From NCBI GenBank assembly GCA_964016885.1, contig OZ024746.1, positions 49,724,001 to 49,788,000 on the forward strand: 64,000 bases of DNA, in the 5' to 3' direction. Position 1 is the stretch's first letter. The number at the start of each line of letters is the position of its first letter. The notes under the pieces were generated by a model. It was given only the letters and a program-made list of their open reading frames with translations. It did not search any database and had not been told where the DNA came from. The position numbers and the translations under genes were made by a program. Origin of the DNA: Eledone cirrhosa. Its lineage: Eukaryota. This document shows positions 6,530 through 7,008 of the stretch, one piece after another.

Positions 6530-6535
<6 letters not shown>

Positions 6536-7008
6536 GTTAAAAATGTACATCTACATATGCATACTGAAATACTAGTGTGTATATGAATACACACACGTAT
6601 ACATATGTAGGTGTACCAAGTCTTTCACTGGTCGCTTTACAGTGAGCGGCCCAGCTATTCTGTATGTAAACACACAGACAAACCGGTTTTTAGAGTCATA
6701 CTGGTTTTTCGGGGGAACACCTTCCCTCTATTCTCCAGAAAGCCAGACAAGGAATATTGAACTAGTTTCGTTGTTGTTACAACTCATCAGCAATATTTAC
6801 CTATCTACCGGCCTTTCTGGAGAATTGTAAAAGCACATATCGTTATATGCTTTTTCTATGAAAATTAGTAGTGGGCAGACTAATTTGCATAGAGTGTGAG
6901 TACGCACCGGTTCAGCGGAGACGATAAAAACAAATAACGAAACGGAATTAAATTTCGTTTCGTTTGTAACTCACTTTTGTATGACTGACGCTTAAACAAT
7001 TAAGTTAA
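6530..7008 (-). mobile_element. Retrozyme-like non-coding HHR element, copy R1 (468-bp unit)
   Basis: 11-bp terminal direct repeat aattaagttaa (6530-6540, 6998-7008), octamer 6883-6890, HHR 6753-6797, homology to 29907-30398 and 42850-43298, (TA)n on both sides. Confidence 0.75.
6753..6797 (-). ncRNA. Minimal type I hammerhead ribozyme (R1)
   Basis: Minus strand: aatattg-CTGATGA-gttgt(aaca)acaac-GAAA-ctag-TT-caatatt. Confidence 0.85.

Follow-up and report, generated by a model that had tools for sequence, protein, structure and literature searches.

Three copies of one short repetitive unit, here R1, R2 and R3, lie within a 64,000-nt stretch of Eledone cirrhosa DNA (the whole stretch analyzed, hereafter the window), and the first-pass annotation had proposed that R1 is circularly permuted relative to the other two. 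The question raised by this locus is whether the permutation is real, and what kind of template could have been opened at two different points of the same unit. The window is eukaryotic, AT-rich and dense in (TA)n runs and transposon pieces, and our sample is the three copies that it contains.

R1 occupies positions 6530–7008 on the minus strand, with (TA)n runs on both sides. It consists of a 468-nt unit and an 11-nt terminal repeat (1.02 units), the unit length being the length of the copy minus one terminal repeat. The 5′ copy of this repeat is at 6998–7008 and the 3′ copy at 6530–6540, directly followed by (AT)n at 6451–6529. R2 (29907–30398, plus strand) comprises a 453-nt unit with an internal tetranucleotide expansion and a 39-nt terminal repeat (1.09 units; 29907–29945 and 30360–30398, 2 mismatches in 39). 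R3 (42850–43298, plus strand) comprises a 422-nt unit and a 27-nt terminal repeat (1.06 units; 42850–42876 and 43272–43298, 0 mismatches in 27), and both R2 and R3 have (AT)n at their end. When the circularized units were aligned, R2 and R3 were 86% identical (348/407 columns) and R1 was ∼60% identical to both (259/431 columns with R2 and 239/398 with R3); judged by sequence identity, R1 is a separate, distant subfamily. The direct alignments of R1 with R2 (60% identity, E 1e-18) and with R3 (59% identity, E 2e-12) begin at R1 position 53–60.

No further member of the family was detected in the 64-kb window by a covariance model, which gave 22 matches, the strong ones being the three training copies (best match beyond them, E 0.025). 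The best profile HMM match outside R1–R3 (E 2e-4) falls in a TA-rich hairpin. Neither model revealed shorter fragments or dimers of the family in the window, and no tandem array of the unit is present there. The 57 nt that separate a short (TA)n run from the start of R2 (29850–29906) contain a small repeat; this segment gave no significant match as an extension or inversion of R2 (1760/5000 and 130/2000 shuffles were as good).

R2 and R3 share their 3′ end base, and their 5′ starts are ∼11 nt apart. Their terminal repeats (39 and 27 nt) are homologous between the two loci, and are therefore part of the element rather than target duplications. The R1 11-mer may be either an overshoot or a target-site duplication; in both cases R1 comprises a single permuted unit. 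The chance of finding this 11-mer is ∼1e-6 per site, and it occurs once more, by chance, at 58988. When it was treated as part of the element, the alignment score was 7, compared with 5 in its absence, a value equalled by 5518/20000 random 11-mers, and the fold energy shifted by 0.7 kcal/mol; neither figure is informative. A 5-mer within it that is common to R2/R3 is found at that offset in 516/127978 window 11-mers (a post hoc count), and its predicted hairpin has a pair probability of about 0.7; both observations lean toward an origin from the element.

The point at which the unit is opened in R1 precedes that of R2/R3 by 60–74 nt. Its 3′ end lies 74 nt earlier in R1 coordinates and 60 nt earlier in R3 coordinates, and its 5′ start precedes that of R2 by 33 nt and that of R3 by 53 nt. 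The permuted segment (6957–6997, minus strand), a homologue of the tail at the 3′ end of R2 and R3, holds arms of three conserved helices. By sequence, the support was weak. A free local alignment of the R1 head with the R3 tail was equalled by 109–214 of 2000 shuffles, and nothing was obtained with R2. With hand-delimited segments, the global alignment was equalled by 52/10000 shuffles for R3 and 199/10000 for R2. In context, the values were 158/10000 (R3), 3444/10000 (R2) and 551/10000 for both jointly; among pieces taken from the window itself, 334/3120 scored equally well. MAFFT misplaced the permuted segment because of the tetranucleotide expansion in R2.

The predicted fold gave a clearer answer. 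The R1 head forms an 8-bp helix (6986–6979 with 6701–6694) and a 6-bp helix with 6901–6896, which in the alignment corresponds to the partner segment of R2/R3; most pair probabilities in the two helices are 0.99–1.0. The R3 tail pairs at matching positions with different letters (mostly 0.8–0.99), and in R2 both helices are weaker (about 0.4 and 0.6). Both helix arms were recovered in order in 3/100000 shuffles of the R1 head, the arms having been picked after folding. In a whole-circle energy test, which is a weaker one, 22/250 and 8/250 shuffles folded equally well. We take the permutation of R1 as real, with modeled structure as stronger support than sequence. The proposal of the first-pass annotation was thus borne out with exact coordinates, by a weak alignment and by covarying helices that R1 has in common with the R3 tail. 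Its view that the R1 head corresponds to the end of R3 found weak support in sequence, but the same helices are formed. Joining the ends of R1 does restore the R2/R3 order, and every copy closes into a complete unit. Of the description of R2 and R3 as starting and ending at a block that runs to tttat, the common 3′ end holds, but R2 starts ∼11 nt upstream of that block.

Each of R1–R3 carries a predicted type I hammerhead ribozyme that is intact across the cut site (3/3); neither the ribozyme nor the class of element had been identified in the first-pass annotation. The R1 hammerhead (6736–6811, minus strand; predicted cut after 6760) has a 6-bp stem I with an extension, a 5-bp stem II and a palindromic minimal stem III. 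The R2 hammerhead (30050–30125, plus strand; predicted cut after 30101) has U-U at the base of stem II and one mismatch in stem I, and that of R3 (42972–43047, plus strand; predicted cut after 43023) has a weak stem II. When the window was scanned, R1 matched Rfam Hammerhead_HH9 (RF02275, clan CL00010) at E 3e-6 with 38.6 bits; R3 matched it with 19.2 bits (E 0.013). Neither reaches the gathering score of 52, and no Rfam hammerhead matched R2. R1 and R3 resemble HH9 in type I topology, all core positions and a 6-bp stem I with a bulged extension, whereas stem III is minimal in R1–R3. In all three copies (AT)n follows the 3′ end of the hammerhead-bearing strand, and the cleavage site lies 174–249 nt from the 5′ end and 230–297 nt from the 3′ end.

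Covariation was scored on a structure drawn by hand from the same three sequences. Both sides had changed in 9 of 22 pairs, and 92% of the 66 cells pair, a level reached by 1/500 shuffles; when the alignment was slid, 35–46% were paired. With a stricter core-and-stem scan, the window yielded 10 hammerheads and 30 shuffled windows yielded none, R3 failing on stem II. In the predicted circular ensemble the R1 ribozyme folds well, stem I of R2 is not formed and stem II of R3 folds poorly, which suggests decay. Additional hammerhead-like motifs, not related to R1–R3, occur at 10992–11554, 12422–12457, 19945–19983, 5739–5789 and 18551–18621; among them are an inverted pair whose stem II is long and a minimal motif that follows (TA)n, the other candidates being weaker.

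What class of element are these copies? The longest ATG ORFs of R1–R3 are 20–77 aa, so no long ORF is present, and the units have a GC content of 0.365–0.378. The predicted circles of R1, R2 and R3 are highly self-paired (63–68% paired; z −10.3, −6.6 and −8.5 with 40 shuffles each), with a contribution from TA-rich palindromes. No tRNA gene, tRNA-like head or pair of A and B boxes was found in R1–R3, and a tRNA-derived SINE was discarded for lack of a tRNA-like head with both boxes. MITEs have terminal inverted repeats, and Helitrons have 5′ TC and 3′ CTRR ends. The termini of R1–R3 are complementary at 1, 3 and 5 of 15 positions and bear neither Helitron end motif, and both classes were rejected. 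Rfam microRNA and snoRNA matches were below gathering and fell on palindromic or TA-rich DNA, and were likewise set aside.

R1–R3 look like solo, non-coding, hammerhead-bearing elements resembling metazoan non-LTR retrozymes. They share with that class one type I hammerhead per unit, a short non-coding unit with GC below 50% and a highly self-paired predicted circle. The tandem repeats with at least two ribozymes that also define the class are absent from the R1–R3 loci; with a single ribozyme and 1.02–1.09 units per locus, these are solo retrozyme-like copies rather than proven members.

The (AT)n run abuts the 3′ end in 3/3 copies, in a window with 144 such runs in 64 kb. Microhomology at the junction is 1–3 nt, and no copy ends within its own TA-rich hairpin. 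The same type of target is used by a Hydra-clade-like Penelope-like element (PLE) at 37919–42371 (plus strand), a candidate mobilizer, whose 3′ end lies against (AT)n. It has an intact 819-aa ORF (38384–40843) and direct pLTRs (37919–38172 and 42118–42371) carrying a hammerhead variant in which C replaces U at the second position of the core. An inverted 5′-truncated copy (35551–37889) has a tail of ∼165 nt; the two 3′ ends of the pair are separated by ∼165 nt and lie 42 and 207 nt beyond an intact ribozyme site, both against (AT)n. The protein had no Pfam match, and among the 120 homologues listed the one named to species is from Argonauta hians. Its motifs are RWR at 38, DKT at 123, CxCx5C at 678 and YVG at 712. 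With an RWK-like motif, DKT, a CxCx5C linker, a C-terminal GIY-YIG, a hammerhead and (TA)n, the element fits the Hydra clade by sequence; a Naiad identity was ruled out by the C-terminal endonuclease motif and DKT. For Octopus bimaculoides, a Hydra family in (TA)n is given by Craig et al. (2021; PMC8557442).

R1–R3 were compared with eight regions of the window that hold PLE or hammerhead sequence. The score of the Hydra B 3′ UTR exceeded that of 100/100 shuffles for all three copies, and the 11.2-kb region did so for R1. These alignments are AT-rich and of low complexity and were rejected as kinship, and none of the eight regions gave convincing homology. Beyond this low-complexity similarity, no shared sequence was found that ties R1–R3 to the window PLEs, and the partner is deduced from target and polarity; the mobilizer is possibly the Hydra-clade element of the window.

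Other PLE sequences are present. A second Hydra-like PLE (30422–35371, minus strand), with frameshifts and stops, begins 24 nt after R2 and contains a 947-nt direct repeat and inverted pieces; the scans detected no hammerhead in it. Other PLEs are represented by 3′ fragments at 60108–61575 and 26100–26838, in which a GIY-YIG-type motif and a Neptune-type linker (CX4CxxC) are present, and an inverted repeat at 7085–7506 is related to 61337–61572. Two related ∼200-nt elements (6256–6450 and 57341–57546), each with a long hairpin and a tail ending at (AT)n, are probably 5′-inverted PLE ends; only the (TA)n run separates the first of them from R1. Elements of other types were also seen. A LINE that encodes endonuclease, RT and zf-RVT domains, and is presumably L1/Tx1-like, is present as incomplete tandem copies at 20.6–26.0 kb and 43.7–57.3 kb, the latter punctuated by (CTAT)n runs. 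An element at 7517–8821 with a 344-aa ORF (weak HTH_32 match) and, by eye, terminal inverted repeats between TA runs is presumably Tc1/mariner-like. A direct duplication of 544 nt with 98% identity lies at 14605–15771.

Which template could have produced the R1–R3 copies? The cut site is internal and intact in 3/3 copies, so the template was not a cut linear monomer. In both phases, the 5′ end tracks the 3′ end by one unit plus 11–39 nt. The template therefore ran through the junction, and we estimate a probability of ∼0.8 that it was circular or multimeric, circle and multimer being taken jointly. The earlier suggestion of such a template is supported by the presence of the whole unit, by the hammerhead intact over the cleavage site and by a 5′ end that shifts with the 3′ end.

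The chances are about even that a circular RNA was copied by target-primed reverse transcription ending just after one lap. A solo copy holds one ribozyme and cannot yield a circle by double cleavage; tandem master copies elsewhere in the genome would be transcribed, cut by the ribozyme and ligated to a circle. A PLE protein would nick (AT)n and prime reverse transcription at a preferred internal site of the circle. One lap would be copied, with a stop or resolution 11–39 nt into the second lap, and a start site of the R1 subfamily 60–74 nt from that of R2/R3 would give the permutation. We infer transcription, cleavage, ligation, enzyme and lap mechanism alike. The 1–3-nt microhomology, together with the absence of ends in the TA-rich hairpin of the copies, fits the homology-independent internal initiation of a PLE described in the text consulted of Frangieh et al. 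(2024; PMC11167929). Priming would not be random round the circle, since R2 and R3 end at one base and three copies show two 3′ phases. Because R1 belongs to a different, 60%-identical subfamily, the phase may be an old trait, set once for each subfamily and not at random for each copy. The full version, in which a PLE reverse transcriptase, possibly the Hydra-clade one of the window, makes about one lap of a ribozyme-made circle from subfamily-specific starts, is offered tentatively. The two differences in 39 between the R2 repeats argue against a circle, which would give identical repeats at insertion, though later decay could explain them. Also counting against it are the poor predicted folding of the R2 and R3 hammerheads, the lack of convincing homology to PLE non-coding regions, and the use of unprocessed linear RNA by a PLE in vitro (PMC11167929).

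Alternatively, the same PLE enzyme could have copied a tandem-array transcript that was linear, multimeric and left uncleaved, starting at one of several internal sites and with resolution near the matching sequence of the next unit; we regard this main rival as a serious though minority possibility. In the in vitro work of PMC11167929, as far as its text was consulted, a PLE used two adjacent internal initiation sites on unprocessed RNA, and a 30–40-nt PLE ‘tail’ is attributed to endonuclease-mediated resolution in the corresponding part of PMC8557442. Terminal repeats in the size range of that tail (39 and 27 nt), the common 3′ end of R2/R3, the two 3′ ends ∼165 nt apart of the autonomous window PLE and the imperfect R2 repeats all suit such a multimer. 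However, PLE insertions are usually 5′-truncated to variable extents, according to the same part of PMC8557442, yet 3/3 copies are 1.02–1.09 units long, with no fragment or dimer. The R1 5′ end follows its shifted 3′ end, and an active ribozyme should cut a multimer.

A linear SINE-like RNA, made of the unit and a short repeat with ends fixed per subfamily, is unlikely. An ancestor of R1 would have shifted phase once, when synthesis was primed at an internal site and then switched from the 5′ end onto the homologous repeat at the 3′ end. The common 3′ end of R2/R3 and the distance of the R1 subfamily agree with this, and the conserved fold also suits a linear molecule. In contrast, the R2 and R3 5′ starts differ by ∼11 nt, paired Pol III promoter boxes are lacking, and an internal self-cleaving ribozyme would destroy the template. 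More improbable still is an origin at the DNA level, in which circles or fragments cut from a tandem satellite reinsert by microhomology to give a unit plus a repeat. The R1 11-nt repeat, indistinguishable from a target duplication by its alignment score (7 vs. 5; 5518/20000 random 11-mers), is compatible with it, but it leaves unexplained why (AT)n is always at the ribozyme-sense 3′ side, and it fails on the identical R2/R3 3′ ends and on 27–39-nt repeats homologous between two loci. The idea that R1 is merely 3′-truncated and that its first 52 nt are unrelated flank draws on the marginal sequence-only tests (334/3120 window pieces equal in context), but is very improbable, since the head begins at the (TA)n boundary with the 11-mer of the far end and gives two position-matched helices, mostly at 0.99–1.0, found in 3/100000 shuffles.

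The class of element and the circle model are already published, and R1–R3 appear to be a known class in a form that tests a proposed step. Cervera and de la Peña (2020; PMC7229834), in the portions consulted, define the non-LTR retrozymes, show circles and mention TSDs >4 bp, and Li et al. (2026; 10.64898/2026.07.22.740005), in the text available, recognize solo monomers and an origin from the PLE pLTR. As these two sources describe them, metazoan retrozymes share with R1–R3 a few-hundred-nt non-coding unit with GC 37–38%, a type I hammerhead with a short palindromic helix III, a self-paired circular fold and co-occurrence with PLEs. A U-U base of helix II is found both in R2 and, in the retrozyme text consulted, in axolotl HHR_Amex2. 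The R1–R3 units (422–468 nt) exceed the ∼170–400 nt given in the main text of PMC7229834, and fall within the 51–972 bp of the corresponding text of 10.64898/2026.07.22.740005. Unlike those retrozymes, R1–R3 have no tandem copies in this window, and their circles are predicted from DNA. The main-text retrozyme descriptions compared mention neither permuted phases nor short terminal redundancy nor (AT)n targeting.

More-than-unit copying of circles is proposed in the sections consulted of PMC7229834, PMC7761336 (de la Peña et al., 2020) and PMC4209133 (Cervera and de la Peña, 2014), where ‘permut’ is absent or refers to hammerhead topology or a citation. A search of titles and abstract openings, mostly of papers outside subscription journals, returned no permuted, terminally redundant solo retrozymes and no octopus retrozymes.

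Hydra-clade PLEs, a clade defined by Craig et al. (PMC8557442), resemble R1–R3 in (TA)n targets, hammerheads and alternative 3′ ends, as far as the clade description and that of the PLE ‘tail’ in PMC11167929 go; a 30–40-nt terminal extension and a template that runs through the ribozyme are also common to both. R1–R3 differ from PLEs in being non-coding, in lacking convincing homology to the window pLTRs and an inverted 5′ piece, and in a 5′ end that tracks the 3′ end. Frangieh et al. report, in the portion consulted, that Poseidon PLE used unprocessed linear RNA in vitro with internal initiation, ribozyme cleavage not being needed. Non-autonomous Chlamys elements such as MRC1 resemble R1–R3, in the passages on them in PMC8557442, as PLE passengers that encode no protein, carry pLTR-like repeats and insert head to tail. 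Those passages have them generally sharing 3′ sequence with an autonomous partner, whereas none was found for R1–R3, and canonical hammerheads are mostly lacking in the Chlamys group, unlike in R1–R3.

In the retrozyme literature compared, as far as its text was consulted, PLE enzymes are proposed, but not demonstrated, to reverse-transcribe retrozyme circles. Counts of solo copies, whose phase and overshoot can be measured, offer a test: (i) a circle and a multimer predict different length distributions; and (ii) they predict different identity between terminal repeats. Three copies are too few to decide between them. With an intact candidate enzyme that has the same (AT)n target in the window, reconstitution is within reach. 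If the one-lap reading is true, the ‘larger TSDs’ of animal retrozymes would be lap overshoots, and unequal crossing-over between the short terminal repeats could give rise to new tandem arrays, so that the life cycle of retrozymes would be complete.
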